This document shows positions 5,129 through 61,210 of a stretch of 64,000 bases of DNA, in pieces. Numbering within the stretch: position 1 is the first letter of the stretch; each line of letters opens with the position of its first letter. The position numbers were made by a program, and so were the translations under genes. The DNA is from Alphaproteobacteria bacterium (lineage in GTDB: Bacteria; Pseudomonadota; Alphaproteobacteria; Rs-D84). The notes under the pieces are model-generated. The model worked only from the letters and a program-made list of their open reading frames with translations, was not told where the DNA came from and did not search any database. The stretch lies in NCBI GenBank assembly GCA_017618175.1, contig JAFZUT010000018.1:29759-93758 (forward strand), written 5' to 3'.

Positions 5129-5153
5129 ATCCCCACGTTTGTGGGGATTTTTT
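5129..5153. terminator. Bidirectional terminator between convergent yidC and the 112-aa ORF
   Basis: Hairpin ATCCCCACGTTTGTGGGGAT flanked by an A-run and a T-run. Confidence 0.7.
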
Positions 5154-5490
5154 AATCGCATAATTTTTTGTACAATGCATCGGGTGTTTGTATAAACGGT
5201 GCGTGCATACCAATTGCGCGCTTTGCCATATCAACGCAAGTCCACGCGTTGCGGGGATTAAAACCCGAATTTATTTCGCACGGCACATAAACAAATCGCC
5301 ACCCATATCGCCCCAGTATTCGTATATCGCGCGTGTGAATAAAAATTTCTGCCACGTTTTTATGTGATGAAAATTGATACATAATAAAACCATTTTTATC
5401 ACGCACCAAAACGGCGCAGTGTTTGAAATGCCTGCAAAATATATTTGGTAAAACTTTACTGGATTTCGGTGCAAACGCAATTATAACCAT
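5152..5490 (-). CDS. Hypothetical protein (112 aa)
   Basis: Lies 11 nt downstream of the preceding minus-strand ORF, so probably the same operon. No family recognised. The His...Cys arrangement (FKHCAVLV ... WTCVDMAKRAIG) only faintly resembles permuted papain-like amidases. Confidence 0.5.
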   Translation of the reverse strand: MVIIAFAPKSSKVLPNIFCRHFKHCAVLVRDKNGFIMYQFSSHKNVAEIFIHTRDIRILGRYGWRFVYVPCEINSGFNPRNAWTCVDMAKRAIGMHAPFIQTPDALYKKLCD

Positions 5491-5501: not shown

Positions 5502-5846
5502 TTATTCAATCCAACCTTTTTCGCGGGCGGCCGCATCCAAAGTATTCATCGCCGTATTCCAAATTGCGGCGGCGTGATTTTCCCGCCATATATATTGATG
5601 CGGCGCGCGCCGGCGATCACCAAATTCTTTCATAACGGCCAATTGGGCATCGTTCAGTTTCCCAGATAAATACAGTTTTGTAATCAATGTTTCAACGTCA
5701 ACCAATTCGCACACACGCCGCGTAGATGCCCGTCCATTGTTTTGCCCTATATCATTTCGCACCGATTTAGAATATAAAAACCAGAACCAAATTTGTTCTG
5801 CGTTTTGAAATTTTTCGGGTGTATAATTTGCTTGTATTTCCGTCAT
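5502..5846 (-). CDS. Hypothetical protein (114 aa)
   Basis: ORF with a good RBS (AAGGAG). No family recognised. Confidence 0.5.
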   Translation of the reverse strand: MTEIQANYTPEKFQNAEQIWFWFLYSKSVRNDIGQNNGRASTRRVCELVDVETLITKLYLSGKLNDAQLAVMKEFGDRRRAPHQYIWRENHAAAIWNTAMNTLDAAAREKGWIE

Positions 5847-6093: not shown

Positions 6094-6118
6094 AAAAAAA
6101 ACCGCCATAAGTGGCGGT
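6094..6118 (-). terminator. Rho-independent terminator ending the virB8-B9-B10-like operon
   Basis: ACCGCCACTTATGGCGGT hairpin followed by T8 on the minus strand, about 20 nt after the stop. Confidence 0.75.
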
Positions 6119-6138
6119 TTATGTTTTCGGTTTTGTCA

Positions 6139-8553
6139 CTATAACTCAATCGGCGGGAAACAATCACCACCCGCATCCGGACAGCAATTGAAACCTTGGT
6201 CACCCATATCGGTGTATGTTTCCCCCGGACAGCATCCATTCGCATCCGGTGCCGCCCCACCATCACACGTCACAACCGAGGTGCTTTGTGTTGTGGTGGA
6301 TGAACCAGACGAAGAAGTTTTCTTGAACGGATTTTGAATTGAACCATCGTCGTTATATTTCAATCCCAAAACCTGTTCATTATATGCCTGGGAACCTTGT
6401 GGGGTTTTGGTTGCCATCTGTTGTTGCTGGTTTTCAAACACCGCCTTTTGTTTTGCATTATTTATCGCATCATATGTCCCCATCGAACGGCAATAGAAAT
6501 CAACAGTATTGAAATTATAACCCCGCCGTTCCATTTCCGTTTTTTCATCGATGTCCGCCATATATGCCCCGGTTTCTTTACCATTAGTATCTTTAACAGG
6601 GGTGCAAAATTCACTTATATTTGCGACCAACATTGAACGAACCTGACCAATCAATTCTTCTGTCTTGGATGGATCTGTTTCCGTAAAGTCATCTTCTTTG
6701 CCATCACGCTTTGGTGAATCCGGATAAGGCAATATTGCGCATCTGCGTGTATCGCCATTGTCTTGACCACAGGTCACAAACAAATCAACAGGTGAAAACA
6801 CCGTGATACGTGTACCGGCGGCGATTGAAAAAGGCGGTGTGGTGTTATCCATTAAATCCACCAATAATTTTGTGGCAACATTGTTCCACGCGGTAATAAT
6901 CTCGTTTTTGGCCAATTCAGATGAACGCACGGTGCCGGTCTGCACAACCGTGTTGTTATCCAAGTCAATTTGATTCACAAATGCATCAGATATAGGTGCA
7001 ATCATATTCACGGCCGCCGGTACAATTGCGGTCAACATCGGCATAACAAATTGTTGCAGATAATCGGTGCTGCCGTGACCGGGAACGCCTTTGCGTCCCT
7101 GGGAATCAGCGGCAAACGGCTGTTTTTTATTATCTGTAAAGTTAAATTCCACACCATCGGGGCGAATAAACTGGTACCATTTTATTTCCATACGACCAAC
7201 CGCCTTGTACGGGCCGGGCAATTCGCCCGTCACATATCCCAACATCAATGTTCCGGTTGGAATAATAACCGTACGACCATTGTCGGAATAAACATTACGG
7301 TCAACCGTTGCGCGTACCGGCAAACCACTTTGCAATAATTTAGAATCTGCCTGAATATCCGATACAATTGTTGCCGGAATCGGTTTATATTGACGCAGAA
7401 CAAAACTGCGGTCATATGGACGTGTTCCAACAACACCTTTATCATTATCGTATCCAGTAAATTCAGTTGTCTTTTTGCGCGGTTTTAACCTAACACCCGG
7501 TTGACGTGCCCCCGGCATAGATGCCAATTGTGAAGCCAACATATCCATATTATCAATTTGTTCCGCACGGGTGACGGTGTGACGCGTTGATGTGCCGCCA
7601 CCAAGCCGGGGCAGGCGGTCCGTCACAACAAAACGTATGTGTTCTGCGTCCGATCCAATTTTGCGTGTTGGATTATTTATGTCCATAATATAACCCGTGT
7701 CTGCATTATACATTCCGGTCGGCGTGTCACAGTTCGTATCAGAAAACGGGTGATAATAATACGCGCCCCCCATTGGTTTTATCCAACCACTTTGAATACC
7801 GGCGGTGTTATATGCCGGAAACGCAAAGTCCGAACAATTATTTTTGAACATATTGCGCGGCACGGCAACCGGTGCATTGTATGTGGGTTCATTAAAACTG
7901 ATTGGTGCCGCAATATTGTTCAGGTCATCTTGAAAATCCGTATCGTAAGCCCAATCATCAATTAAAGGTTCCGGTTCTGGCTCCGGCTCTGGTTCTGGGG
8001 CGGGCGCATCCGTACGTGACATTGGTTTTTCGCGCGCCCCGATAACCAGTGTAATAGCCTTGGGGTTATCAACTTCGGCACCGGTTTCAAACGCACTCCA
8101 CGTAATTGCGACATTTGCGTCAGTGGTGTTAATTGGGTGTTCTGGTTGATATTTAATATTTATGACGCACGGGGCATTTTCTTCGATAATGGTCTGGTCA
8201 TTTTTACATGTTTCGGTTGCAGAAATTCCAACGGCATCATTTGTATCGCCTTCGACCCGCACAACAACATTTGTAATCTGAACGCGCGTATTTGCAGAAA
8301 CAAAAAATTCTGTTTCGCGAACTTCACCCACCACCGTATCAGACCAATCGACCGGCGCATCGGGCGTAATAATCAATTCCGGTGTGGCCGGCAAAGAATT
8401 CGGGTCAATCACAACGCGTTGTGCCTTGCGATTTCCAACCAATATCATCAGTAACACAACCACGATAATAATTGCCGCCGCCAACAATATCCATTGAACA
8501 TATTGTGGCGTAGTTTTGCGAAACTCCGAAAATTGTTCACCGATTTTACTCAT
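6139..8553 (-). CDS. virB10: VirB10/TrbI-like type IV secretion core protein, enlarged (804 aa) with extra N-terminal, proline-rich and Cys-rich C-terminal regions
   Basis: N-terminal TM (WILLAAAIIIVVVLLMILV) and a (PE)n linker (APAPEPEPEPEPEP). VirB10/TrbI-type beta-barrel region at about aa 385-592 (LPVRATVDRNVYSDNGRTVIIPTGTLMLGY...RMEIKWYQFIRPDGVEF...AGTRITVFSPVDL). A further 212 aa follow, ending CDGGAAPDANGCCPGETYTDMGDQGFNCCPDAGGDC. Confidence 0.8.
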   Translation of the reverse strand: MSKIGEQFSEFRKTTPQYVQWILLAAAIIIVVVLLMILVGNRKAQRVVIDPNSLPATPELIITPDAPVDWSDTVVGEVRETEFFVSANTRVQITNVVVRVEGDTNDAVGISATETCKNDQTIIEENAPCVINIKYQPEHPINTTDANVAITWSAFETGAEVDNPKAITLVIGAREKPMSRTDAPAPEPEPEPEPEPLIDDWAYDTDFQDDLNNIAAPISFNEPTYNAPVAVPRNMFKNNCSDFAFPAYNTAGIQSGWIKPMGGAYYYHPFSDTNCDTPTGMYNADTGYIMDINNPTRKIGSDAEHIRFVVTDRLPRLGGGTSTRHTVTRAEQIDNMDMLASQLASMPGARQPGVRLKPRKKTTEFTGYDNDKGVVGTRPYDRSFVLRQYKPIPATIVSDIQADSKLLQSGLPVRATVDRNVYSDNGRTVIIPTGTLMLGYVTGELPGPYKAVGRMEIKWYQFIRPDGVEFNFTDNKKQPFAADSQGRKGVPGHGSTDYLQQFVMPMLTAIVPAAVNMIAPISDAFVNQIDLDNNTVVQTGTVRSSELAKNEIITAWNNVATKLLVDLMDNTTPPFSIAAGTRITVFSPVDLFVTCGQDNGDTRRCAILPYPDSPKRDGKEDDFTETDPSKTEELIGQVRSMLVANISEFCTPVKDTNGKETGAYMADIDEKTEMERRGYNFNTVDFYCRSMGTYDAINNAKQKAVFENQQQQMATKTPQGSQAYNEQVLGLKYNDDGSIQNPFKKTSSSGSSTTTQSTSVVTCDGGAAPDANGCCPGETYTDMGDQGFNCCPDAGGDCFPPIEL

Positions 8554-8577
8554 AATGACCCACCGTATTTTTGCGTA

Positions 8578-10131
8578 CTATTGAATACGAACCACTTGGC
8601 AACTGGCACCACTGAACTTTAACAATTGGTCGCAAAGTTTTTGTGCCGTATCAATATCCGGCATAGGCCCAATGCGCAACCGATACAAACGTGCCGCCGA
8701 AGATGTCGCGCCCAATTCGCCGACACCCTGTTCATCAACCGCATAAAATACGCTGTCTTTATATTTGGTCAGCAATCCTTGACCATCATTGCCACTGAAA
8801 CGCGCCATCAAATCTGCCCAGTAATCGTCCAATGCCTTGACACTGGTGTCTGATTTTAACTCGACCGCAACACCGCCTTGGTTCGTGGTAATAAGCGGAA
8901 TATTAGATTGCGGTAAATATGCCCCCGCCGTATTGCGCACCGTTGGCAACATGGTCATGCCGTTTGATGTTCCGCCGGTCGGCGTTCCATACATATTCAT
9001 CATAATTGCCCCCGATGTTGCCGCCGGCATATTCATTTGCACGCCATTTGTGGCCGGCATAGTGTTGTTTATATATGTTGGTGTCGTTGTGTAATTACCA
9101 TAACCGTTTTGAATTGCAACCTGGTCCGCGGTGTACAGGACGTTGTTCAACGATTGTCCCGACAACATACTTTGCGCAACATTCGCCTCGGCCAAGGCCA
9201 TAACACTTGCGGTGTCGGCAATCAAGAACGGTTTAGAACGTTTTTTGATACAAACAATGCGTTGACCACTGCGCAGAACCATATCGCCAACGGCCTCGAC
9301 AATCAACAACCGTCCGTCTTCGCCATCTGTGCGGAAACCAACCGGCGATTCGCCACCTTCGACCAACAACGATACAACCGGGCGTTGGGTCATAGAAATA
9401 ACTTTGTCGCCGAAATCAATATATGTAAACACCCGGTCGCGCCACACGCGTTCCGGCGCAATCACATAATCATCCGGGTTTGGAACAAATATATCTAAAT
9501 CAAAACGAAATTCGGACGGGTCAATTTTCATTGTTTTAATCCAATCATAATCTTCGCCGTCAACACCAATGGTTCCGCTTTTTGCCGGTGTCTTTTTGAA
9601 TATGGAATTCATGGCCCCACCGGTTTGTGCACCCGCAACGGCCATAGACGCCGGCAACCGTGCGCCACCATCCAATACAACATCAACCTGGGAATATGTG
9701 ATTTCCGATGCGTTTGACGGTTCGCTGCGCAGATAGAAAGTATAAACATTCCCAGATTTCCCCGTCACAATCAGGTTTGTATCGGAACCCATATTATCGG
9801 CCGCGGGCGTAATATACATTGTGCGACCACCCTGGGTTGCGTCAATGGAAAAGAATCCGTCATTGCCGACGATGGCCTCTTCTATTTGTTCGCCAACCGG
9901 TAAATTCACCATGGTCACCATACCATTGCGCAATTTAACCGGTAACACGGTTCCCGCATCCCAAGATAATTGGGCATATCCGGGTTTAATACTGCCCGAT
10001 GCCATATTTGCATTTGGGTTGTCCCATGCACCTTGGACGCCATAGTTCACCGCACGTGCGTCAAACGCAACAAACGCGACAATCGCGCCGATTAAAGATA
10101 TCTTTCCCGCAAATGATTTTAACAGTGTCAT
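8578..10131 (-). CDS. virB9: VirB9/CagX/TrbG-like type IV secretion core protein fused to a C-terminal SPOR-like domain
   Basis: Signal peptide. VirB9 N-domain pattern (VKLRNGMVTMVNLPVGEQIEEAIVGN...TNLIVTGKSGNVYTFYLRS) and C-domain pattern (PERVWRDRVFTYIDFGD...LLIVEAVGDMVLRSGQRIVCIKK). A Met/Asn/Thr/Gly-rich linker leads to the last ~99 aa, which match the SPOR pattern (LYRLRIGPMPDIDTAQKLCDQLLKFSGASCQVVRI). Confidence 0.8.
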   Translation of the reverse strand: MTLLKSFAGKISLIGAIVAFVAFDARAVNYGVQGAWDNPNANMASGSIKPGYAQLSWDAGTVLPVKLRNGMVTMVNLPVGEQIEEAIVGNDGFFSIDATQGGRTMYITPAADNMGSDTNLIVTGKSGNVYTFYLRSEPSNASEITYSQVDVVLDGGARLPASMAVAGAQTGGAMNSIFKKTPAKSGTIGVDGEDYDWIKTMKIDPSEFRFDLDIFVPNPDDYVIAPERVWRDRVFTYIDFGDKVISMTQRPVVSLLVEGGESPVGFRTDGEDGRLLIVEAVGDMVLRSGQRIVCIKKRSKPFLIADTASVMALAEANVAQSMLSGQSLNNVLYTADQVAIQNGYGNYTTTPTYINNTMPATNGVQMNMPAATSGAIMMNMYGTPTGGTSNGMTMLPTVRNTAGAYLPQSNIPLITTNQGGVAVELKSDTSVKALDDYWADLMARFSGNDGQGLLTKYKDSVFYAVDEQGVGELGATSSAARLYRLRIGPMPDIDTAQKLCDQLLKFSGASCQVVRIQ

Positions 10132-10158
10132 ATTTCCTTTCCCTTTTGCCTTTCATAT

Positions 10159-10818
10159 TTACTGTTTATACACCGTATCCAGTGGATCTCCACCACCTTC
10201 GACCGTATACCGCGAAACTTTGACCCCCAATGGGTTGTTCAAACGTTCCGCCCATTTAATTTGTGCATCATCCGTCATAGTAATTCCAATCAGGATTGTA
10301 TAATCTTTTTTGTCGGTTTGTCCATTATTATCTGAGCAATAATATTCAAATTTTACCGTGTATTGGTTGTCGCGTAATTGCATTGGCCGACCGCGGAAAT
10401 TCACGACACAGTTAAATGCAACATCGGGATAATCACTCATAATCGCCTGGTACAGTCCCGTTTTCTGGAACGCTTTGTATACATCTGGTGTGGACCATGC
10501 GGCAACGACGCCGTTGCTGCTACCCCATTTTTGCCGCATTATCGACATATTTTGTTCAATCTCATTGCGCGCACGCACATATTCCATAACAAATGCCTGG
10601 CGATAAGCCTCAAGATTTTCGTCATTTGGTGGCAATTCAGTAATTTGAATAACCGATGCACCTTCGGGTTTTGACGTTATAAAGAACACTTCCGGCCGGT
10701 TCAGCGGAAACATTTTTTCCAATGTCATAAACATTACAAACAACACAACCACGCACCCGGCGAACACAAAAACAAGCAATCTTGATAATAAAACCGGCGG
10801 TTCTATGCGGTTTTGCAC
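10159..10818 (-). CDS. virB8: VirB8-like type IV secretion inner-membrane protein
   Basis: 219 aa, single N-terminal TM, then a VirB8-type periplasmic domain (AFVMEYVRARNEIE ... NNPLGVKVSRYTVE, compare the canonical NPLGFxVTSYR ending). Confidence 0.75.
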   Translation of the reverse strand: MQNRIEPPVLLSRLLVFVFAGCVVVLFVMFMTLEKMFPLNRPEVFFITSKPEGASVIQITELPPNDENLEAYRQAFVMEYVRARNEIEQNMSIMRQKWGSSNGVVAAWSTPDVYKAFQKTGLYQAIMSDYPDVAFNCVVNFRGRPMQLRDNQYTVKFEYYCSDNNGQTDKKDYTILIGITMTDDAQIKWAERLNNPLGVKVSRYTVEGGGDPLDTVYKQ

Positions 10819-10947: not shown

Positions 10948-10978
10948 CCGCGCCATCACAATTTTTGTGATGGCGCGG
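10948..10978 (-). terminator. Strong hairpin terminator after the 199-aa secreted-protein gene
   Basis: CCGCGCCATCACAA-TTT-TTGTGATGGCGCGG perfect inverted repeat, about 25 nt downstream of the stop at 11004. Confidence 0.65.
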
Positions 10979-11003: not shown

Positions 11004-11603
11004 TTACGTTAACGGCGTATAGCACTTATTATTGCCGCACGCGCCACTGCAACAAGATTCGTTTTCGCTGCAATATTCGCCATCAACTTTACAATTACTT
11101 GCCTTGCCGCTTGGACGGCTGCTGTCGAATCCATCGGGTCCATAAACGATGCGTCCATGCAAGTTCCACAATAAACAATTACCGGATTCATCCGCGTCAA
11201 AACAATTTGCATAAACGGCGGTTGTTTCCGTCATTTCCGGCAAATTGTCCACCGTACTGGATATTTCATCCATCTCGTTATATAAATCATCCATAGCCGG
11301 AACAATATCACCCGCGGTCACCAGGTCCCCTTCGTGGCCTGAGACAACACCGCCGTTTTCATCGTCATAGCCTGTTTCAAAATCAAAAATCCCACGTTCA
11401 CCGATTACACCGTTACCGGTCGTTGTATATGTGACAACGGTTTCACCGGGGGTTGATGCGTTTGTTCCCGCCGCAGGTATTTTATTTTGTTTCAATGCAT
11501 CTTGGGCATCTACATAATCTTTGGATGTAACCGTGGAACTTGTTGCAAATGCGTTTAATGCTAAAACGGATGCGATTGCACCAATGAATAATGCCTGTCT
11601 CAT
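11004..11603 (-). CDS. Secreted protein (199 aa) with DYVD...KQxKI N-terminal motif, NCLLWNL motif and knottin-pattern Cys tail
   Basis: The ORF track starts at 11768, but the ATG at 11603 has RBS AAAGGGAGG and yields a signal peptide (MRQALFIGAIASVLALNAFA). Paralogous to 25848..26360. C-terminus is CKVDGEYCSENESCCSGACGNNKC. Confidence 0.75.
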   Translation of the reverse strand: MRQALFIGAIASVLALNAFATSSTVTSKDYVDAQDALKQNKIPAAGTNASTPGETVVTYTTTGNGVIGERGIFDFETGYDDENGGVVSGHEGDLVTAGDIVPAMDDLYNEMDEISSTVDNLPEMTETTAVYANCFDADESGNCLLWNLHGRIVYGPDGFDSSRPSGKASNCKVDGEYCSENESCCSGACGNNKCYTPLT

Positions 11604-25847: not shown

Positions 25848-26360
25848 ATGAGTAAAGTTTTATTATTCGGGCTAATCGCATCGGTTTTAACAATCAACGC
25901 ATTTGCCGATCCGGTCACAATCACGACCCAAGATTATGTTGATACCACGGTCGCCACCAAACAAGATAAAATATCCGCCCATGGTACGGTTAGTATTGGA
26001 AACGTTTCTGCCTATGGGCTTCCTGATTCTGTTATAACCGACACCGATACAGACGGTGTTGTCGCAAAACGGGTTATTATGTATGGTGCCGGTCCGTGGT
26101 ACGTTACAACCGACTATATGGGCAATGCTCTTAAACAAGGCGTACTTTTGACGCAAAACTCGATTAAGAGTATGGCGAACACTATGGGGTACAGTGACGA
26201 TGATTTGGACAAGGCATTGGTTTCCGCCGGTGTGATAAATGATGCCTTTCGTAAAACGAACGAGACAATATTAAATAGACAACTTAAAAAAGTCTGTGTT
26301 CAATGGATTGAAAATGTGGCCGAAACCGATGCAAATTGTTTGTTGTGGAATTTACCGTAA
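25848..26360 (+). CDS. Secreted protein (170 aa), paralogue of 11004..11603 (DYVD...KQDKI and NCLLWNL motifs)
   Basis: An internal ATG with RBS AGAGGGG gives the signal peptide MSKVLLFGLIASVLTINAFA. Shares TxDYVDxxxAxKQxKI and the C-terminal NCLLWNL with the 199-aa protein. Confidence 0.75.
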   Translation: MSKVLLFGLIASVLTINAFADPVTITTQDYVDTTVATKQDKISAHGTVSIGNVSAYGLPDSVITDTDTDGVVAKRVIMYGAGPWYVTTDYMGNALKQGVLLTQNSIKSMANTMGYSDDDLDKALVSAGVINDAFRKTNETILNRQLKKVCVQWIENVAETDANCLLWNLP

Positions 26361-29038: not shown

Positions 29039-32000
29039 ATGAAAAGACTTGCTATATTTATTGGTGGCCTGCTTGTGTTGCCCGCATTTGCTGAGGTTGC
29101 ACCTGTTTTATATGAAGATATTGAATACGCGGATGTTGTGTATGATGAATACGGCAATCCGGTGTATTACACCGATTATACGGACGCGGATTTAACCCCG
29201 GAAATGGACGAAAATGTGACGATGCCTTCTGTTCCTGCGTCACGCAGTGGATCCGCATCGCGTGCAAACACTAACCGCACAACAATCGGTCGAACGGTAC
29301 CCACAACCAATGCGGGTGCGGCCACGGGTCGTGCGTCTGCGGCAAATTCGTCACGTGTGGTGGCGGCGCGTACAACATCGAATTCTTCCCCACGTTCAAA
29401 CACCAATTCGCGCAGTGTTTCATCGCGTACAACATCAACCACGGCAACGCGCACAACAACCGATACAGATGCCACGCGGGCGGCGGCAACCCGTGCAACG
29501 GGCGGGGCGGGGCGTACCGCAACATCAACCCGCACAGGCGCATCCGGTGGTGCGACGGTGGCACGAACAACAACATCGCGTAATGCGACATCATCGCGCA
29601 CGGCAACGACCGGTGCACGTGTAAATCGTGCATCGACCAACGCGGCGGTGGGGGTGACCGGCAATGTTATATCTGCTGCGCCCATCCGGGTAACCACGGC
29701 CAGCGGCACAACAAACGCGGATTACCTTACCGACAGTGGCCAAAGATTATATAACGCAAACGGTGCACGTGTCAGTGTTGCGAACCGTGTTCCAACAATT
29801 CGTATGTCATCGGTCAGTGGCATTTCCACCGATACCACATCGGTCAGTGCGACCACCCCCGCAGAAATGGACGAATTGGCGGAATTAACCGATTATTGCA
29901 AGGCCCAATATGCGGCGTGCATGGATAATTATTGTAACGTCTTGGACGACAACCAAGGCCGTTGCAGTTGCAGTGCCAATATTAAAAATTATGCCAAGGC
30001 CGAGGCCGCATTGAAACAGGCAACCGAAGAATTGCAAGAGGTTGCACAAAAGATTCAATACATTGGTTTGTCCGCGCGCGAGGTTGAAACCCTGTTCACC
30101 CAGACCGAGGCGGAATTGAAAATGCAATCCACCACCGATACCAGTCAGTTAAAGACCAGTCTGGACAAGATAAAAGATATGATTATCGAGGTTCAATCCG
30201 GCAACGCATCATCTTCGAATTCGTCTTTCCTTTCGTTTGATTTATCGGGTCTGTTGGACTTTACTATTGACAGCACCGGTTTTGATTTATCTTCGTTCTT
30301 GGGTGGTTTTGGCACGAATTCAAACGGTATCAATAACCAACGCGGCGAAGAATTGTTCAAAACCGCAACAAATCGTTGCAAGGCGAACGTCTTAAAGGCC
30401 TGCACGGCCCAGGGTGTTGACGGTTCATTGGTTACGAACGCGTATGATTTAGAAATTGACCGCGAATGTATCGCCTATGAACGCAGCCTGAACGATTCCA
30501 ACGACCAAATGGTTGCAACGGTGCGCAACGCCAAAAGCGTTCTGCAAAAGGCGCGCCTGTTGGTGGAACAATCGAAAAACGAATACGATATGCGCGGATG
30601 CATAAACGCACTTGATTCCTGTATGCAGGATGAATACGTTTGCGGCACGGATTATGAAAAGTGCCTTGATCCGTCCGGCCGCTATATCGTGAACGGCGAA
30701 ATAGTTATTGGTACCGACCCGGGTCGCGCGGTGAATGGCATTGGAGACGCCACAAATGCCACGGGTGTGTTGGACGGCGATATATGCAGTATGAATTTGT
30801 ATAACGTTTGGAATTATGGTTCATCCACGGCGGGCCAAACAACGGCCGGTTGCAAAAACGCATGGAACAGTTACAGCCTGAACGGTTCCAACAATGGTAA
30901 TTTGGCGGATTATATAAACACAACCGTGACGGCAACTGCGGCCAAGAACGGCGGTTTGGGTATGTCTGAATTTATCCAAAACAAAATCGGTTATGTTGAT
31001 GGCGACAAAAATTATGGTATGTGCATATCGGTGCTGAATAAATGCCAAGATTACACATACACCGGCAAGGGTTCTTCGCGTAAATATAACCCCGTGAACG
31101 AGGTTGTAAAACAATACTTGGATCGTATGTTGATTCAAATCAAGGCAAAGCAAGACCAAATCTTGGCGGAACACGCGGAAAGTTGTATAACGGACGTGAC
31201 AACATGCCTGTCCCAGAACAATTATCCGTTTGATGAGGCATCAACGAACCAGGTTCAGGCGAATATCGCAATCAACGCGTGCCGTTCAACAATCGTGACA
31301 TGTATGTCGGTGAATGGTTATTCGGTTGAAAACCCGACCCCATCTGATTTATCACGTTGGATTTGTGGTATTACCACCGGCAGTGTCGATTGCATCCCAA
31401 ATTCCGGCGGCGGTTCCGGGGGGGGTGAGACAACAACCTATACAGTTACATACAATTGCAACGGTGGAACTGGGACGGCACCGGCGTCACAAACGGTTCA
31501 ATATAACACTCAATTCATGACACGTGCCAACACATGTACCAAACCGAGTGCAAGTCAAACGTTTGATGGGTGGCTTGTGGGAAGTACGTCATCTGATAGT
31601 GTTGTTTGGCTTGCAAATAGGACATATACATACAATTATCAATCTGATAAAACACTTTATGCGCGTTGGACTACGGTGACGGGTTCTTGCACTCCAACGA
31701 CACTTGGAAATTGTAACGAAACAACGTGCGGAAGTTTGGGGGGAAATTACATATGGTGTACTACCGGGTCTAGCAGACCGTCTTGTAAATTAAGAACAGA
31801 TTGTCCGGCCGCATGCAGCGCGACCAATTTGCCGGCATGCGACAGTGATGAGTGTGGGTTGTACAATGGTAATTGGTGCGCATCGGGAACAACGATTAAC
31901 TTCTCATGCAGTGATACTGCAGGTGCCTGTTGTTTGGGCAATCCAACCGGTTGCACGCGCAATCAGTGTGATGCCCTGAATTATAAATGGTGTGTCCAAA

Positions 32001-32200
32001 GAACTGGCGATACACCCAAGTGTACGAGTCAGTCATATCAAGTGGAATGTTGTGTTGGTTCTGTCGCGGGTTGCGCACGCGAGCCGGATTGTATCGCCGT
32101 TGGTGGAACGTGGAATGGGACCAGTTGCAGTGGCAGTGGAGATGATGGTAGGTACCAATATAATACGATAGAAATTGAAGGTGCGGAAGTAAATCCATAA
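29039..32200 (+). CDS. Large secreted multidomain Cys-rich protein (1053 aa)
   Basis: Signal peptide (LLVLPAFAEV). Arg/Ser/Thr/Ala-rich low-complexity region at about aa 66-215. Long helical region with six C-x6-7-C motifs. One Listeria-Bacteroides (InlB B-repeat) type domain at aa 800-878 (YTVTYNCNGGTG...FDGW...TLYARW). Four tandem 4-Cys modules at aa 884-1030. Confidence 0.8.
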   Translation: MKRLAIFIGGLLVLPAFAEVAPVLYEDIEYADVVYDEYGNPVYYTDYTDADLTPEMDENVTMPSVPASRSGSASRANTNRTTIGRTVPTTNAGAATGRASAANSSRVVAARTTSNSSPRSNTNSRSVSSRTTSTTATRTTTDTDATRAAATRATGGAGRTATSTRTGASGGATVARTTTSRNATSSRTATTGARVNRASTNAAVGVTGNVISAAPIRVTTASGTTNADYLTDSGQRLYNANGARVSVANRVPTIRMSSVSGISTDTTSVSATTPAEMDELAELTDYCKAQYAACMDNYCNVLDDNQGRCSCSANIKNYAKAEAALKQATEELQEVAQKIQYIGLSAREVETLFTQTEAELKMQSTTDTSQLKTSLDKIKDMIIEVQSGNASSSNSSFLSFDLSGLLDFTIDSTGFDLSSFLGGFGTNSNGINNQRGEELFKTATNRCKANVLKACTAQGVDGSLVTNAYDLEIDRECIAYERSLNDSNDQMVATVRNAKSVLQKARLLVEQSKNEYDMRGCINALDSCMQDEYVCGTDYEKCLDPSGRYIVNGEIVIGTDPGRAVNGIGDATNATGVLDGDICSMNLYNVWNYGSSTAGQTTAGCKNAWNSYSLNGSNNGNLADYINTTVTATAAKNGGLGMSEFIQNKIGYVDGDKNYGMCISVLNKCQDYTYTGKGSSRKYNPVNEVVKQYLDRMLIQIKAKQDQILAEHAESCITDVTTCLSQNNYPFDEASTNQVQANIAINACRSTIVTCMSVNGYSVENPTPSDLSRWICGITTGSVDCIPNSGGGSGGGETTTYTVTYNCNGGTGTAPASQTVQYNTQFMTRANTCTKPSASQTFDGWLVGSTSSDSVVWLANRTYTYNYQSDKTLYARWTTVTGSCTPTTLGNCNETTCGSLGGNYIWCTTGSSRPSCKLRTDCPAACSATNLPACDSDECGLYNGNWCASGTTINFSCSDTAGACCLGNPTGCTRNQCDALNYKWCVQRTGDTPKCTSQSYQVECCVGSVAGCAREPDCIAVGGTWNGTSCSGSGDDGRYQYNTIEIEGAEVNP

Positions 32201-32221
32201 AATATTACGAGGGATGATAAT

Positions 32222-33658
32222 ATGAAGAAATTTTTGACATGTGCGTTATGTTTTATGCCGTCTATTGCCGGTGCGGTGACTTTGTATTACACTCCGGGCC
32301 GTGAATGTCCCGGTTTGTACTTGAATTCTGCTGAAATCGGTTGCCCGGCGGATTCCCTGCGTGTGACACAATTAAATGTGACATCCCGTGCAGACGCAGA
32401 TTTTACTGGATATAATGTTGGCAATGTTGAAATTGTAGATTCCACCGGCAATATTAAATCAAACGCGGTTGAAACATTGGCCGCCGCAGCCGCAGCCGGC
32501 AATACTGTTTCCAAAGTCACCGGAAATTACGAATGCCAAACCGGCGCCCGGGAAAACAGCAACGGTGTGTGTGTCAATGCACTGTCTTTGGACACATCCA
32601 CATCTGAAAATATCGCATATATTGATTGGGAATCTTTGGTGAATAACACAAATCTTGATTCTGGTTACGAAATAGATCCCAATCAAATAAAAGATGATGG
32701 CGGCAAAGGCTGCTATTACGACAGGGATTTCGATATAGTGATTCATTGGTGCCCAAAAAATTATTCCGCAATTGATTATTCATATGGTGGTGCACATATT
32801 GCATACGGAAATAATCCCGTTGATTGGTCCGCTTTGCCATGCAATCAATCGACCGAGACATATCATTATCATTGGAACGGGGGAACATCTCTTGGAACAT
32901 ATACCAAAAATGGTGTTACACAAACTGAACTGGTGTTTCCATCTGCACTGGGTTGGTCTCCGCGCGGTTTGTATATTGTGGGTTATCCGGAATTCAAACC
33001 GAACGACAGTTCGTTTAATAACATTCCGTATTATTCGTTGCTTAAAACAATTGCAGATAATTTGGTGACAGAACAAAGTACGACGTGGGGACGTGCACGT
33101 TTGGGTTTACCTTTTAATCAGGCAAATGTCACCGATAGAATAATATTAAACAACACTGTGAATGGTTATGGCGACGCAAATGCAAATTGGCAGATTTGGA
33201 CGTGCCGTGGCGATGTGCAAACTGTTCATATGTATGCGGCATGGGCGCGTGATTGTGCCCCAGGTGATAGCAGCGCAACATGCACACGTCAAATTCAACG
33301 TCATGGTTTATCAAATCCGGACAAAGGCGACACCATGTATTACACATCGTGCACCAGTGGCACGCTTTCCGGCGATGGCACATATAACCCGTCTTGCGGC
33401 GAATGTTCGGCGACAAATTTAGGTCAATGTAGTAAAAAAGACTGCGTATTTTCGAACGCACATTGGTGTGTGGTTGGTGGTACGGAACAATGTGTGGCCC
33501 AAGGCGCATCCGCCAGAAGTTGTTGCGTTGACGATTTTACCGGCTGTGACAGCAAGGGTTGCGGCCTGATGGGTGGCACATGGGATGACACGACATTGAC
33601 ATGTACAGGCAATGACGGTGATGGTGACACCGGAGACGAAAGTCAAGAGGGTGCATAA
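32222..33658 (+). CDS. Secreted Cys-rich protein (478 aa) sharing the C-terminal 4-Cys module
   Basis: Starts 21 nt after the previous gene with RBS GAGGGA. Signal peptide present. The C-terminus carries two copies of the same module (CSATNLGQCSKKDCVFSNAHWCVVGGTEQC, CCVDDFTGCDSKGCGLMGGTWDDTTLTC) and an acidic tail. Confidence 0.8.
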   Translation: MKKFLTCALCFMPSIAGAVTLYYTPGRECPGLYLNSAEIGCPADSLRVTQLNVTSRADADFTGYNVGNVEIVDSTGNIKSNAVETLAAAAAAGNTVSKVTGNYECQTGARENSNGVCVNALSLDTSTSENIAYIDWESLVNNTNLDSGYEIDPNQIKDDGGKGCYYDRDFDIVIHWCPKNYSAIDYSYGGAHIAYGNNPVDWSALPCNQSTETYHYHWNGGTSLGTYTKNGVTQTELVFPSALGWSPRGLYIVGYPEFKPNDSSFNNIPYYSLLKTIADNLVTEQSTTWGRARLGLPFNQANVTDRIILNNTVNGYGDANANWQIWTCRGDVQTVHMYAAWARDCAPGDSSATCTRQIQRHGLSNPDKGDTMYYTSCTSGTLSGDGTYNPSCGECSATNLGQCSKKDCVFSNAHWCVVGGTEQCVAQGASARSCCVDDFTGCDSKGCGLMGGTWDDTTLTCTGNDGDGDTGDESQEGA

Positions 33659-56270: not shown

Positions 56271-56355
56271 GGGCCCGTGGCGAAATTGGTAGACGCGATG
56301 GATTTAGGTTCCATTGGGGAAACCTGTGGGGGTTCAAATCCCCCCGGGCCCACCA
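56271..56355 (+). tRNA. tRNA-Leu (anticodon TAG)
   Basis: 85-nt class II tRNA folded by hand. GGGCCCG acceptor, GCGAAATTGGTAGAC D-region, anticodon loop TTTAGGT, long variable arm, GGGGGTTCAAATCCCCC T-arm, CCA. Confidence 0.88.
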
Positions 56356-56405
56356 CCGAAAATTGTTATCGCGTACAATCAAGTACGCGATTAAAATTTT
56401 TGAGT

Positions 56406-56600
56406 GCCGCGCCGTAGCATTGTTCGAATCAAGGGAAATATATTTCATAATTAGCGGCGAAGGCGGGCAAAATTCCAGATTACTTTAATGCCGCGCCGTT
56501 CCGCTTTCACTTCGTTACAGCGAGATTATGCATAAATGGCGCCTGTGCCACAAAGCCTTGGCGCAGTGGCAAGGGCGGACAAAATTCCAAATATTTTAAT
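56406..56600 (+). repeat. Two degenerate tandem units (84 and 111 nt) downstream of tRNA-Leu
   Basis: Both units start GCCGCGCCGT and end GGCGG(G/A)CAAAATTCCA(G/A)AT(T/A)(A/T)(C/T)TTTAAT. Confidence 0.55.
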
Positions 56601-56743
56601 ACACCGGGTAATCGCGCAATGGCCCATCCGGTCGCGACAGTCCCGATTTCACTCCACATCCCGCAGTTGCCAAGGTTGAAATACAAATCAAAAATAATAA
56701 AACCTTTCTCATACCGTAAATTATACCATACATTGTCGTGTTG

Positions 56744-57247
56744 TCAAACGTGGCACGCGGCAAACAAATTCCATTCTTGGGTTCGGCGACGGATTAGGCC
56801 CGGCATCACACGTCCGCCCGATTTATTCCATGCCAACCACGACGATTTCAAATCCGGGTATATCGAACTTTTGAAATTCGGCTTATTTATATATTTTACA
56901 ACGGTCGAGTTTGCAAAATTCTTTGCACCAATGTTGTATGCAAAAATCACCAACGCATCATATTGATTCTGGGTCAATGGCACAGTGATATTATTTCGCA
57001 CTGCGCGTTCCGCCCCGGCGATATCCGCGCGCAATAATTCGGTCGCGCATGTCTCGGTAATGCCACCGGAAAAATTTTCACCCGGTTTTATTAAATGTCC
57101 ATAACCAATCGTTGCCCCGTGTGGCAATGACACGTTGATGTCCACGGACCGGCCGGTTTTATCGTCATAGACAATGTGTTTGTCACCTTTTTTGACACAG
57201 CCTTCTAATTGTTTTAATAATTCGATTCCGTTATTGCTGAATTTCAT
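56744..57247 (-). CDS. Phage-type lysozyme (glycoside hydrolase family 24)
   Basis: 167 aa. LKQLEG (catalytic Glu region), YDDKTGR...TIGYGH, LTQNQYDALVIFAYNIG, GLIRRRTQE. Confidence 0.85.
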   Translation of the reverse strand: MKFSNNGIELLKQLEGCVKKGDKHIVYDDKTGRSVDINVSLPHGATIGYGHLIKPGENFSGGITETCATELLRADIAGAERAVRNNITVPLTQNQYDALVIFAYNIGAKNFANSTVVKYINKPNFKSSIYPDLKSSWLAWNKSGGRVMPGLIRRRTQEWNLFAACHV

Positions 57248-57393
57248 AATTTTCCCCGTAAATAAAAAAACGGTGGCAAAACACCACCAATTGAATGGTC
57301 ACATTATATCACAAAACGCGATAAAAATCAATATGCAATAATTGACAAAGGCGTTTAAATTGCTAAAATACGCGCAATAATAAAGGGTAAAAA

Positions 57394-57720
57394 ATGAAAA
57401 GACCAACACCATATAAAATTGAAAAAGAAAAACAAGAAACATACAAATTAAATGTTCAAAATTTGATTAATTTGATTCCGAATGCGACTGTGGCAAAACA
57501 GGTTGCCCCAGAAGAATTTCAGACATCCACCAAACATCCAATCAAATGGAGTATCGACAACAGTTATGCGATTTATTCTTCACGGTTTGTCTATACGATT
57601 GCAAACGACGGTACCGAAAATTTTCAGTTTTTTATGAAACCGCAAGATTACAAAGAATTTGTGGCGGCGTGTGAACAACGCCGTGCCGAATTGTTCGGAC
57701 GAAAAAACAAAAGCAAATAA
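57394..57720 (+). CDS. Hypothetical protein (108 aa)
   Basis: ORF followed by a hairpin terminator (CAACCACCATTTGGTGGTCG). No family recognised. Confidence 0.5.
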   Translation: MKRPTPYKIEKEKQETYKLNVQNLINLIPNATVAKQVAPEEFQTSTKHPIKWSIDNSYAIYSSRFVYTIANDGTENFQFFMKPQDYKEFVAACEQRRAELFGRKNKSK

Positions 57721-57878
57721 TAAAACAACCACCATTTGGTGGTCGTTTTATTTAACCGATTCACACGCCAACGGGACACTCGATTTGTGGTGGTCTGGGA
57801 AAAAAATATTAAGTTTTTTTAAGACATGTTTTGCAATTTATTATAAATTATGTCATACTTTCCCCAAGAGGGAACGAC

Positions 57879-58427
57879 ATGCAAAAAAACAACAAAACAT
57901 CTGTGATTGCCAATGAAAAAATTGATAATTCAAAACTGATTAAGGCCAGTAAAATTATGCTGGATTTACAGCAAGAGTTAAAAAAATATATCAATAAAGG
58001 TTATGGACCGTTTTTGGCCGCTGTTTATGATTCAAACGGAAATCTTGTCGCCAAGGCCGCCAATAATGTCGTGGATAAATCTTGCAGTAATAATCACGCC
58101 GAAATAAACGCGATAAAGTTAGCGGAAAAGAAACTGGGGACTTATGATTTATCGCCGTATGATTTAAGTATATATGTGACATCTGAACCGTGTATGATGT
58201 GCCTGGGGGCAATTATGTGGTCCGGGATAAAGGCGATTTATTACGGGGTTCCATCTGAACGTGTCACAAAAATCACTGGATTTGACGAAGGTTTCAAACC
58301 AAATTGGTATAATGAATTCAAAAAACGTGGCATAACCGTTTATGGCCAAATTGAAACGGATGCGGGCGAACAAGTTCTAAAAGATTATGTGGTACTTGGT
58401 CATACCGTTTATAAACCAAAGAGATAA
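57879..58427 (+). CDS. CDA-fold nucleoside/nucleotide deaminase (TadA/guanine-deaminase-like)
   Basis: An internal ATG with RBS AGAGGGA. Zinc motifs NHAEINAI and SEPCMMCLGAI. Confidence 0.75.
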   Translation: MQKNNKTSVIANEKIDNSKLIKASKIMLDLQQELKKYINKGYGPFLAAVYDSNGNLVAKAANNVVDKSCSNNHAEINAIKLAEKKLGTYDLSPYDLSIYVTSEPCMMCLGAIMWSGIKAIYYGVPSERVTKITGFDEGFKPNWYNEFKKRGITVYGQIETDAGEQVLKDYVVLGHTVYKPKR

Positions 58428-58614
58428 TTATTCTGGCAGAATGCCCTGTGCAATTCACGAGTTGATTTTATGCGTGATTTGTGGCTGTTTGGGAAAGAAT
58501 TAAGGTGTTTTTGAATCAACAAATTTAATTCTTATGTTTAAATTTTGCAAAACAGTTAATATCACGAAAACTTCGTTTTCAAACGGCACTGTCGTGCCGT
58601 TGACACTCTTGCGC

Positions 58615-58692
58615 AATCCGAGTGGGGCATTTAGGCAAAAATAAAAAATACCCAAACGGGTATTTTTGATTTTTGGCAGCCCCACTCGGATT
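58615..58692. repeat. 78-nt extended palindromic element
   Basis: AATCCGAGTGGGGC...GCCCCACTCGGATT arms enclose AGGCAAAAATAAAAAATACCC-AAAC-GGGTATTTTTGATTTTTGGCAG. Confidence 0.7.
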
Positions 58693-58792
58693 TCGCTCGC
58701 TCGGCACAAAGTGCCGGCTGCGCGGCATTCGTGACGCATCGCGATAAATCGCTCTGCTACTCATTGTGAACCGCGGTTCAAACCGGTGGGGC

Positions 58793-58843
58793 GCAGGCAA
58801 AATAAAACGACCACCGTTTTGGTGGTCTTTTTATTTTGGCAGC
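58793..58843. repeat. Related 51-nt palindromic element
   Basis: GCAGGCAAAATAAAACGACCACC-GTTT-TGGTGGTCTTTTTATTTTGGCAGC. Shares the GGCAAAA(A)TAAAA / TTTTGGCAGCCC flanks with 58615..58692. Confidence 0.7.
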
Positions 58844-59168
58844 CCAAGACCTTACAAATTTGAACCGGTTTATGGAACAAACTATAAATATCGCGGAATC
58901 CCTAATGGATGTGGATTTTGCACTTTATGCCCGATACAAACACACACAAACGCAAACCCCACAAAACCAAATAAATATAATCCAGAACAATATTCTAACC
59001 AGGGATGATAACAAGGGTATAGATGGGATATAAAGGTCAAGATAATACCCCTAACATGAACCATAACTTAATGGCATGTGGTGTAAAGAAAAGCATTCTT
59101 TTATCCTGTGCGTCTGATTCTAATCCGATGCACATGGGGGTGGTGGGGGATAAGGTTTGTTTAAGCGC

Positions 59169-59984
59169 TTATAATTTGTATCCGAGTTTCTTCATTTCTG
59201 TTTTCCAGTTTTTTACCGAACAAAAATGTTCATTGCCGAATTCGGATATATCGCTTTTTATACTACTTATGATTTCTGAATATGACATTTTCCTAGAGTG
59301 TGCATATATATTGGCCGAGAAATAATCACCAACAGCAGCCGCCAAATTGGCTGCTTGCATAGGGCTAAAATTAATCTGATGTTCATACCAACCTCCCTGT
59401 TCTTTCAACAAATTGGTGTATTCTTGTTCGTATAGTATTTTGCAATCAACCAATTGTGTCGCCATATTCCTAGTGTTGTCTTGAACTTTTTCCATGCAAG
59501 CCGCATATTCTGTTGTGGTTGTCTTGTCATTCTTTTTACACCCATTATCAGAATTAAAGTATTTGACCCATTTCTTAAAATCATCGTCTGTTTTTATTGG
59601 ACTGTTTTTTGGCAAAAAGCGTTTATAATCAAAAGTCACTTCGTATTGTGTATGATTCCGGCGATATATTATACAATCATCGGAATCGTAAAATTCTGAA
59701 CCGTTAAATTTCTTTTCCATACACCCAAATTCAGTCCCAGGAACCGAAACACTTAATTCATTATAGCATTCTTGTGACTGCCTATCGAAAATAGGTATCC
59801 CACTTTTGTTCAGAGCATATTCATCGCATTGGCCATTGACGGCATTATACGCCTTTATTATATCGATTGGGTCTGTGGATACCTCTAAATCGCTTGCAAA
59901 CTTTTCTGCATTTTGTATTTTGGTTTGTGTCGTTGCACAAGCCGATAAAATAAAGCACATAGATACGATTAGTATTTTTTTCAT
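59169..59984 (-). CDS. Lipoprotein, hypothetical (271 aa)
   Basis: RBS AAGGAG. Lipobox MKKILIVSMCFILSAC. Cys-rich mature part. Confidence 0.65.
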   Translation of the reverse strand: MKKILIVSMCFILSACATTQTKIQNAEKFASDLEVSTDPIDIIKAYNAVNGQCDEYALNKSGIPIFDRQSQECYNELSVSVPGTEFGCMEKKFNGSEFYDSDDCIIYRRNHTQYEVTFDYKRFLPKNSPIKTDDDFKKWVKYFNSDNGCKKNDKTTTTEYAACMEKVQDNTRNMATQLVDCKILYEQEYTNLLKEQGGWYEHQINFSPMQAANLAAAVGDYFSANIYAHSRKMSYSEIISSIKSDISEFGNEHFCSVKNWKTEMKKLGYKL

Positions 59985-60003
59985 TTTTTACTCCTTTGTT
60001 TTT

Positions 60004-60648: not shown

Positions 60649-60731
60649 ATTTCCCCTTTTTATTAAATAAAATCGACCGCCAAAAGATTGACGGTCGGGG
60701 AGTTGATAAATCACCTTGTTAAGGATTTCGC

Positions 60732-60866
60732 GGGTTTCGGGTTGCCCCTATTGTATAACCACGACTCCCCGGCCATGCGGGGAAATCAACGGTGCGAAAA
60801 ACACCGAGATAATAGATTACGATGCTTTCGCACCGAACAAGGTAGGCTTATCACAGCCCCGAACCC
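60732..60866. other. GC-rich ~135-nt element with a three-stem fold (possible structured RNA, strand unknown)
   Basis: Perfect 9-bp stem GGTGCGAAA...TTTCGCACC. Hairpin TCCCCG-GCCATG-CGGGGA. Outer pairing GGGTTTCGGG / CCCCGAACCC. No ORF. Confidence 0.3.
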
Positions 60867-61134
60867 AATCTCTTGGATTCATTGAAAACTTTACAGAGAA
60901 ACATGAAAAAAGTCAAAATATAAATTGTCTGCGCTGGTTTTATATTTGATGTGCGACAATCGCATTGTCGTGCCCGACGTCGCAATGTTTTGTTTTTCGG
61001 CATACCGACTATTCCAAAACCAAGACATCGCGTGTCGAGGCAAAATAACACTATTTACGAATCGATTATGTTTTAACGCAACCATGTCAACATACCAGAA
61101 AACCGACAAAAACAAAAAAATATGCATCAATGGC

Positions 61135-61163: not shown

Positions 61164-61210
61164 AAAAATCGTTCAAAACCACGGTCACAAAGGAGTTGCG
61201 AGGATTTTAA

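Follow-up and report, generated by a model that had tools for sequence, protein, structure and literature searches.

In type IV secretion systems (T4SSs) of solved structure, VirB7, VirB9, and VirB10 make up the outer-membrane core complex, and VirB8 belongs to the arches and inner-membrane complex rather than to the core ring, its periplasmic domains forming the arches together with parts of VirB10 (PMC12624023). VirB4 attaches through the VirB8 tails and the cytoplasmic segment of VirB10, with contact between the VirB8 cytoplasmic tail and VirB4 in the R388 system, and VirB11 docks on VirB4 (PMC12624023). Across T4SSs, VirB4 is the only ubiquitous protein (PMC4027160). Here we examine a unit of three genes, for VirB8-, VirB9-, and VirB10-like proteins, on the minus strand at 6139-10818 of a 64,000-nucleotide stretch from an Alphaproteobacteria bacterium (assembly GCA_017618175.1, contig JAFZUT010000018.1, positions 29,759 to 93,758; hereafter, the whole stretch is the window). 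By the roles of their counterparts in solved systems, these genes encode the core ring, minus VirB7, and the arches; they form a single operon for the periplasm-spanning scaffold of a T4SS-derived machine. As a chromosomally fixed and accessorized VirB8-VirB9-VirB10 set, the unit is undescribed in the literature that we searched, which also offered no paper connecting RF32, Rs-D84, or Enterousia with a T4SS. Our leading interpretation, which could fall either way, is that it represents one islet of a split T4SS, in the manner of rvh or ComB, with VirB4 and other components encoded elsewhere.

The rvh system of Rickettsiales provides the nearest likeness in setting: a chromosomal T4SS that passes vertically among host-dependent Alphaproteobacteria with reduced genomes, broken into islets that together hold virB3, virB4 (two), virB6 (five), virB7, virB8 (two), virB9 (two), virB10, virB11, and virD4 (PMC2653234). 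Its hallmarks are the duplicated virB4, virB8, virB9, and virB6 genes and the retention of the full ATPase set (PMC2653234). At the present locus, by contrast, a terminator and then an unrelated gene come after virB10, and no virB11, virD4, or duplicate lies nearby. In Rickettsiales, virB8-virB9-virB10-virB11-virD4 are usually contiguous.

Two Helicobacter pylori systems invite comparison as well. ComB works with VirB4 alone, without VirB11, VirD4, or VirB5, and is encoded at separate loci, one of which groups comB8-9-10 (PMC12857230). The NCBIfam ComB10 family scores nearly as well as VirB10 on our VirB10-like protein, and a ComB10 structure is among the fold matches of that protein, but the score (58.7 bits) is far under the family cut-off of 300. 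Moreover, ComB2-4 and ComB6-7 are without homologs at our locus, and ComB proteins bear none of the SPOR, immunoglobulin-like (Ig-like), or Cys-rich additions described below. The resemblance to ComB is functional and architectural only. For the Cag system (CagV/CagX/CagY), the likeness lies in VirB10: a profile of the VirB10 family run against the PDB finds CagY as its best match and sole solved relative by sequence (E 3e-7), and the Cag homolog, like those of our locus and of a sister lineage, is much enlarged by extra domains or repeats. Nonetheless, Cag, which includes CagE (VirB4), Cag-alpha, and Cag-beta, is an effector system encoded on a pathogenicity island, and the sequence relationship does not extend beyond the TrbI domain.

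Identity and Expression Signals of the Operon

Three consecutive open reading frames (ORFs) occupy 6139-10818, exactly where the original prediction had placed them: a VirB8-like protein of 219 residues (10159-10818), a VirB9-like protein of 517 residues (8578-10131), and a VirB10-like protein of 804 residues (6139-8553). That prediction had read hallmark patterns of the three T4SS proteins from the sequence, and the profile hidden Markov model searches that it had suggested, with VirB8, CagX/VirB9, and TrbI/VirB10, bear it out, all three ORFs exceeding the Pfam cut-offs. Specifically, the VirB8-like ORF matches Pfam VirB8 with E 2.7e-15 (57 bits, cut-off 23); the VirB9-like ORF matches CagX with E 2e-20 (74 bits, cut-off 34) and SPOR with 23.3 bits (cut-off 21); and the VirB10-like ORF matches TrbI with E 6e-16 (59 bits, cut-off 35). 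NCBIfam names agree with those of Pfam, and since the NCBIfam scores are far under the equivalog cut-offs, the three proteins are distant members of their families.

The genes are separated by gaps of only 27 and 24 bp, and a Shine-Dalgarno sequence, AAGGGAG, lies 8 nt upstream of the GTG start of virB8. Upstream of virB8, a search for a sigma-70 promoter returned a -10-like TACAAT with a poor -35, and we claim no promoter there. Terminators had been predicted on both sides. The downstream one, at 6099-6120 on the minus strand (read 6120-6099), is canonical: 19 nt past the virB10 stop codon, it consists of a 9-bp GC-rich stem (five GC pairs), a 4-nt loop, and TTTTTT. On the upstream side, between virB8 and the neighboring Cys-rich gene, the minus-strand hairpin at 10948-10978 is real and strong (-33.6 kcal/mol, z = -7.3), but because it has no directly adjoining U-tract and was not listed by the terminator scan, its role as a terminator is plausible only. 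It probably ends transcription of the upstream gene and so marks the 5' limit of the operon.

Architecture of the Three Proteins

The VirB8-like protein is a bitopic inner-membrane protein, comprising a cytoplasmic tail of ~8-10 residues, one transmembrane (TM) helix, and an NTF2-like periplasmic domain that ends in an NPLG motif. It aligns weakly with the Bartonella VirB8/TrwG crystal structures, the NPLGxxV motif included. The short N-terminus, which starts right after the ribosome-binding site, is kept in ~70 loci.

The VirB9-like protein opens with a signal peptide, followed by a VirB9/CagX region (residues 54-297; 9241-9972, minus strand) that is almost unchanging across the focal family, that is, the family of the window's proteins. 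For VirB9 as a whole, identities among the best 120 relatives range from 70 to 99%, higher than for VirB10. Both of the beta-sandwich domains from which the outer-membrane core complex builds its I- and O-layers are present in the protein. The N-terminal domain, as modeled by AlphaFold2 (AF2), superposes on that of R388 TrwF/VirB9 with a TM-score of 0.80 and a root mean square deviation of 2.1 Å, and its fold also matches Xanthomonas VirB9, DotH, TraK, and CagX; the family profile matches R388 TrwF weakly. A low-complexity linker then joins the CagX region to a C-terminal SPOR domain (residues ~420-517; 8581-8874, minus strand), recognized by Pfam and modeled by AF2 with a beta-alpha-beta-beta-alpha-beta order that fits the SPOR fold (predicted local distance difference test [pLDDT] 67-80). 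This domain is retained on VirB9 in the focal lineage, in an intermediate lineage (L015), and in the sister lineage (L011, L017), where it reaches 27.7 bits in Pfam. We found no description of a VirB9-SPOR fusion in the literature searched. SPOR domains are peptidoglycan-binding, and this one may pin the VirB9/VirB10 ring to the cell wall. A PBP5-type D-Ala-D-Ala carboxypeptidase adjoining recR, just outside the window start (L001 18834-19952), also carries a SPOR domain, weakly marked by precomputed Pfam in L001, L002, and L008 and unmarked in L005-L007; SPOR fusions may therefore be a habit of the lineage.

The VirB10-like protein begins with a short cytoplasmic helix, crosses the inner membrane, and reaches a TrbI barrel that bears two antenna-like helices; identities for its segments are means of pairwise identity in the focal-family alignment, and all of its segments lie on the minus strand. 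The cytoplasmic helix (residues 1-17, 51% identity) and the TM helix (residues 18-40, 54%) are encoded at 8434-8553. In the alignment, P16 and W21 are invariant and R12 is kept in at least 90% of sequences, with a hydrophobic stretch afterward, and AF2 places helices at residues 4-14 and 17-40. Residues 55-175 (8029-8391; 36%) form an Ig-like (ASH/PapD-like) beta-sandwich with two conserved cysteines (pLDDT 80-88), for which Foldseek returns the HYDIN PapD-like domain, CEP192 SPD-2, and Ig-like adhesin domains. A PEPEPEP linker (residues 176-238, 29%) leads into a beta-hairpin domain at residues 239-318 (7600-7839; CSDFAFPGYN...GWIKP...KIGSD), which combines two invariant cysteines with 64% identity and a pLDDT of ~80, and which by eye appears to resemble the G-x-V-x-D-x-x-G-x-x-IG repeats of the giant VirB10 found in the sister lineage. 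Beyond a variable linker (residues 319-378, 27%) stands the TrbI/VirB10 barrel (residues 379-595; 6769-7419), 85% identical across the family and recovered by Pfam, by the profile search of the PDB, and by Foldseek, which matches the model to TrwE/VirB10, CagY, TraF, and ComB10. Within the barrel, AF2 predicts the antenna-like helices at residues 498-532 and 544-569, and the segment that holds them (residues 495-570) is 90% identical.

Past the barrel, the alignment defines a C-terminal extension specific to the focal family (residues 596-804; 6142-6768), ~200 residues long with 10 conserved cysteines and no Pfam match. Residues 596-760 are 41% identical, and the terminal module (residues 761-804; 6142-6273), GCCPGETYTDMGxQGFNCCPDAGGDCFPPI, is 76% conserved. 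The module occurs once in the window and recurs in separate small secreted or lipoprotein-like proteins (P0292, P0308, and P0295), of which P0292 comprises three tandem copies and P0308 has a copy 81% identical. VirB10 has 14 conserved cysteines in total, with an even count in every segment, which suggests therefore that they form disulfides in an oxidizing compartment. An apparently intermediate VirB10 of 922 residues (P0293) was rejected as a fragment on a 2.8-kb contig.

The extra domains that had been attributed to both outer-membrane core proteins are thus present, as SPOR on VirB9 and as Ig-like and Cys-rich parts on VirB10, and no ~800-residue VirB10 with an Ig-like domain and a shared Cys-rich module was found described in the literature searched. 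Taken over whole proteins, confidence in the AF2 models is low (mean pLDDT 55 and 47), and only the named domains are used here. That the two proteins are core homologs is seen in Pfam scores above cut-off, in fold matches, and in the predicted pair of antenna-like helices. By analogy with solved systems, VirB9 and VirB10 would form a ring in which the antenna helices make the outer-membrane pore, with the Ig-like and disulfide-rich VirB10 modules perhaps lining or decorating the periplasmic or surface side.

A Fixed Position in the Core Genome

The window derives from a 268,889-bp scaffold of a ruminant-gut metagenome. On one flank of the unit, recR-ksgA-Na/H exchanger-lspA-yidC and two unknown genes (112 and 114 codons) lead up to virB10-virB9-virB8; on the other, past virB8, come a gene for a secreted Cys-rich protein, tRNA-Trp, and secE-nusG-rplKAJL-rpoBC. 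The neighbors named in the original prediction, namely yidC, the two small ORFs, and the Cys-rich gene, are all in place. Two relatives inspected directly, with VirB10 identities of 62% and 46%, keep the order secE-nusG-rplKAJL-rpoB / B8-B9-B10 / 114 aa / yidC-lspA. More broadly, the three-gene unit and its housekeeping flanks recur across the clade in the comparison with related genomes that had been proposed: among 80 loci (867 kb in total) from rumen, human-gut, and other metagenomes, on contigs that include ones of 935, 851, 697, 590, and 558 kb, the same flanks appear wherever the contig reaches far enough. Contig ends limit the counts of flank genes recovered, which are 48 for nusG, 42 for rplK, and 35 for yidC.

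The VirB10-like protein has ~900 database relatives, and the best 120 of these are all ~800 residues long, 46-100% identical, and from metagenome-assembled genomes (MAGs) labeled "Alphaproteobacteria bacterium." One relative carries the label "Rickettsiales bacterium," given by its NCBI submitter. Against closest relatives, the ratio of nonsynonymous to synonymous substitution rates (dN/dS) is 0.06-0.15 for all three genes. Best-hit identity across loci is higher for VirB9 (65-91%) than for YidC (54-90%) and LspA (47-91%). The unit is a core-genome operon, inherited vertically and under strong purifying selection.

Relatives with Fuller Gene Sets

The nearest canonical relative that we found is a complete plasmid T4SS, that of Microvirga sp. 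VF16 pMVF16-3, which comprises VirB2, VirB3, a Pfam-confirmed VirB4, VirB7-VirB11, VirD4, and the relaxase MobA. Its VirB9, VirB10, and VirB8 are 34%, 26%, and 25% identical to those of the focal unit. This plasmid type, which also includes Sphingosinicella BN140058 and Erythrobacter aureus, shares with our locus a VirB9 of 34-40% identity, the B8-B9-B10 order, and a long VirB9 (550 residues). The Microvirga cluster differs in being complete, with a 58-residue VirB7 lipoprotein, on a plasmid rather than the core chromosome; in having a VirB9 tail that is not recognized as SPOR; and in a VirB10 of 590 residues without the Cys-rich tail. Only 19 plasmid records match the focal VirB9.

A chromosomal cluster of a sister lineage (for example, MAG BRZ_CI__bin89 [CALXWZ01] and GCA_045605805.1) lies closer to our unit. 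Its order runs from rplQ through a gene for a Cys-rich protein with a pilin-like N-terminus and genes for five secreted helical proteins (~255-295 residues each) to the T4SS genes: B8, a 59-residue VirB7 lipoprotein, a second B8, VirB9-SPOR (575 residues), a giant VirB10, and VirB11. Like the focal unit, the sister cluster is chromosomal and adjoins ribosomal or housekeeping genes, and neither has VirB4 or VirD4 within 10 kb; upstream of the sister cluster, a scan for VirB4 met rplQ and the Cys-rich pilin-like gene instead. Both VirB9 proteins end in a SPOR domain, with identities of 42% for the core region and 34% for SPOR, and the TrbI domains of VirB10 are 31-35% identical. In contrast to the focal unit, the sister cluster keeps VirB11 directly past VirB10, a VirB7 lipoprotein with a KKSPCAC motif, both VirB8 copies, and the secreted helical proteins, and its VirB10 extends over 2,100-2,300 residues with a long repeat array. 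Near the start of that VirB10, precomputed Pfam marks a weak ASH match. When the focal VirB10 profile was compared with the giant VirB10 by hhalign, the TrbI domain alone aligned, with no N-terminal homology reported, so the N-terminal similarity of the two proteins rests on fold matches and the weak Pfam match. The Cys-rich protein directly upstream of the sister T4SS genes (L013 7446-9644) has 732 residues, many Cys-rich repeats, and a prepilin-like N-terminus (GRSMVEMLGVLAVIGVLS).

An intermediate lineage (L015), with 33% VirB10 identity, has the same architecture as the focal unit, in the order mutS / 57-residue lipoprotein / B8 / B9 with a SPOR-like end / B10 / two small genes / thrS. No ATPase gene was found at this locus, and of the two small genes past B10, one encodes a signal peptide and the other an N-terminal hydrophobic helix. 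In two further distant members, VirB11 was likewise not found past VirB10. The intermediate lipoprotein (L015 5543-5716) is unlike VirB7 of the KKSPCAC type, and a secreted protein of ~120 residues encoded downstream of the unit (L015 10466-11247; L012 3029-3388) is 35% identical between two lineages; both may be lineage-specific subunits.

Since the sister cluster and the Microvirga plasmid hold fuller gene sets, the three-gene unit is the reduced end of a series that leads from a complete plasmid T4SS of the Microvirga type through the chromosomal sister cluster. The SPOR fusion, which coexists with VirB11 in the sister lineage, must then predate the three-gene unit.

The Search for the Remaining Components

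The absence of VirB4, VirB11, VirD4, VirB6, and VirB2 from the 64 kb, as first claimed from the sequence alone, was upheld by Pfam, by tblastn, and by a check for polytopic proteins, and VirB3 was not found either, although a small divergent VirB2 or VirB3 could escape these tests. Precomputed Pfam matches on called genes, which reach to ~60.8 kb, include no T4SS-related domain outside the unit, and among those genes no relaxase or type IV coupling protein domain was found; Pfam searches of ten unannotated ORFs in the window, including two at 59.2-60.7 kb, returned nothing related to T4SSs. A tblastn search of the whole window with the full plasmid T4SS gene set matched only B8, B9, and B10, and no polytopic VirB6-like protein is encoded among the unannotated genes of the window.

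Beyond the window, VirB4 was absent from the 10-kb flanks of the unit at the 80 loci and in other relatives, by precomputed Pfam and by tblastn with the Pfam-confirmed VirB4, and VirB11, VirD4, VirB2, and VirB3 were likewise found within 10 kb of the unit in no focal-type locus. Neither the window nor the focal-type loci yielded VirB5 or VirB6. For VirB7, a combined lipobox and PC[AGS]C search recovers the lipoprotein in the sister loci and in the Microvirga plasmid, with no match in the window or at any focal locus (only the loci being covered); the gap upstream of virB8 contains no fitting small ORF. A search seeded with the sister VirB11 was saturated by the sister lineage, whose proteins, all at least 70% identical, made up the best 120 matches, none of them tied to focal MAGs. 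By NCBI accession, none of 9 VirB11 entries shared a MAG block with any of 8 focal VirB10 entries.

One Islet of a Split System, or a Scaffold without Motors?

We favor the split-T4SS reading over that of an orphan scaffold. If the split reading is correct, at least the VirB4 ATPase, plus VirB3 and VirB6, would be encoded elsewhere in the genome, and the machine would move macromolecules, whether by DNA uptake or by exchange with a partner cell, in the service of an organism unable to make its own building blocks. VirB4 is ubiquitous among T4SSs and we know of no ATPase-free T4SS derivative, which argues for this reading, as do the retention of the arches protein VirB8 and the conservation of the VirB10 cytoplasmic helix. 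The sister lineage points the same way: because VirB11 docks on VirB4 and none is encoded within 10 kb, the partners of the sister VirB11 must lie elsewhere, which already makes dispersed T4SS genes likely for the wider clade. Precedents for a split arrangement exist in rvh (PMC2653234) and ComB (PMC12857230). The clade that carries the unit is probably the reduced-genome order Rs-D84 ('Ca. Enterousia'-like), which consists of gut Alphaproteobacteria with genomes <1 Mb, a lack of biosynthetic pathways, and a presumed dependence on partners (PMC12306168). In several assemblies, the contig that carries the unit ranks first, at 0.56-0.94 Mb, a size in keeping with such genomes.

Several observations weigh against a split system. 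In the window, in the 80 loci, and at the loci of more distant relatives, we found neither an ATPase or pilin of a T4SS nor VirB3, VirB6, or a coupling protein; the VirB8 tail, which contacts VirB4 in R388, is cut to ~8-10 residues across the whole lineage; and the focal locus has lost several components that the sister cluster keeps, namely VirB11, VirB7, one VirB8, and the arrayed helical proteins that are secreted. Deletion would be simpler than repeated relocation in a small genome. The only paper that we found on Rs-D84 metabolism mentions no T4SS (PMC12306168).

Those same observations lend themselves to a second explanation, which we consider possible yet less probable: that all T4SS ATPase and pilus genes were lost, and VirB8, VirB9, and VirB10 kept as an exapted envelope-spanning complex. 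Such a complex could act as a SPOR-pinned peptidoglycan link or passive conduit between the inner and outer membranes, or as a platform that exposes the Cys-rich VirB10 tail on the cell surface, where it would meet a partner cell. The differences from the sister cluster would then record stepwise loss, the five helical proteins, which are paralogs, included; the VirB8 tail is short lineage-wide; and no motor or pilin gene was seen within the 10 kb around the unit at any focal-type locus examined. The disulfide-rich VirB10 extension, conserved and family-specific, with a terminal module that other secreted proteins share, and the high conservation of the antenna segment are further points in favor, and in genomes that are probably <1 Mb, dispensable genes tend to go (PMC12306168). 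Against this stands the reach of the evidence, since absence has been shown locally, for the window and the loci, together with the dispersal of T4SS genes seen in the sister clade. VirB8 and the conserved cytoplasmic helix of VirB10 also suggest a partner in the inner membrane or cytoplasm, and no T4SS-derived complex without VirB4 is known to have been described. About as probable as this explanation is its fullest version, a T4SS stripped to VirB8-VirB9-VirB10, with no VirB4, VirB11, or VirD4 genome-wide, that serves as an ATPase-independent conduit or contact device spanning the envelope, pinned by SPOR and capped by the disulfide-rich VirB10 tail.

The original prediction had likewise suggested that the unit could be a remodeled scaffold, and part of its case stands: the operon is self-contained, motor, pilin, and coupling-protein genes are missing nearby, and the extra domains are real. 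What does not hold is the use of those domains as an argument that the motors are gone. A sister cluster equipped with VirB7, a second VirB8, and VirB11 has VirB9-SPOR too, and possibly the N-terminal Ig-like domain, so these features are no sign of motor loss.

Fixed position, conserved flanks, and low dN/dS show the unit to be neither a relic nor a mobile element, and the absence of a relaxase adds to the case that it is not a mobile conjugation module, as the first interpretation had also suggested. Decay of a chromosomal T4SS or integrated conjugative element into a remnant without current function is accordingly very improbable and close to refuted: motors and other subunits are indeed missing at the locus, but hundreds of database clusters, with VirB10 identities as low as 46%, have intact full-length ORFs, the substitution ratios are those of constrained genes, the TrbI domain is well conserved across the family, and the operon retains its core-genome position, its own ribosome-binding site, and its own terminator. 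Least probable of all is a fragment of a mobile conjugative element (an integrative element or plasmid) captured in the assembly, for although the closest canonical relatives found are plasmid T4SSs and a probable mobile island occupies 56-64 kb of the window, that island is unrelated and 45 kb away, universal housekeeping genes flank the unit on both sides, in an order that the clade shares, none of the adjoining genes encodes a relaxase, integrase, or coupling protein, the unit and the rest of the window overlap in GC content (0.42-0.48 and 0.39-0.47, respectively, one block at 0.477 aside), and neither patchy presence among close relatives nor flanking attachment sites were seen.

Implications

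Should the motors be encoded elsewhere, the unit would be part of a new chromosomal T4SS, passed on vertically in a gut lineage that is widespread though uncultured (rumen, human gut, and probably termite gut), in parallel with rvh of Rickettsiales. Members of the lineage are thought to live off other cells, and such a system would be a prime candidate for the acquisition of DNA or metabolites or for attachment to a partner. Should the motors be absent, the VirB8-VirB9-VirB10 subassembly could evidently be kept and remodeled alone, which would bear on how the core complex assembles and what it is capable of without energy input; a stripped, ATPase-independent complex would be the first T4SS core complex exapted on its own. 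Either way, the VirB9-SPOR fusion and the ~800-residue VirB10 provide concrete handles for structural work.

Neighboring Genes and Other Features of the Window

Between virB10 and yidC, the genes at 5502-5846 and 5152-5490 (both minus strand) encode unknown cytoplasmic proteins of 114 and 112 residues; of the 80 related loci, 45 yield the former and 42 the latter. The 114-residue protein is under very strong constraint (dN/dS ~0.03) and has no match in Pfam, NCBIfam, PHROG, or the PDB. Given its place past virB10, it was considered as a VirB11 remnant and rejected, there being no similarity to VirB11.

The secreted protein encoded next to virB8 (11004-11603, minus strand) has a knottin-like Cys-rich tail, is 199 or 296 residues long, and is absent in some relatives. 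Immediately past its signal peptide, it has a motif, T-(S/T)-(K/Q)-(D/N)-Y-V-D ... K-Q-(D/N)-(K/V)-I, in common with a second secreted protein of the window (~25850-26360, plus strand) and with the 296-residue protein of a relative (L005 6671-7561). Farther along, 29039-33658 (plus strand) encodes a protein of 1,053 residues with a weak Flg_new match only, followed by a secreted protein of 478 residues without a family match; both are large unknown surface proteins of a kind that has been noted for Rs-D84 genomes (PMC12306168).

Finally, past a tRNA-Leu gene (56271-56355), the GC content falls to 39-40%, and the remainder of the window (56271-64000) is probably a mobile island. Among the products encoded there are a lysozyme of phage type (56744-57247), two Cys-rich lipoproteins (59169-60714), and a 257-residue protein (61530-62303) that is present on 14 contigs and, on another contig (L099), adjoins a large serine recombinase.

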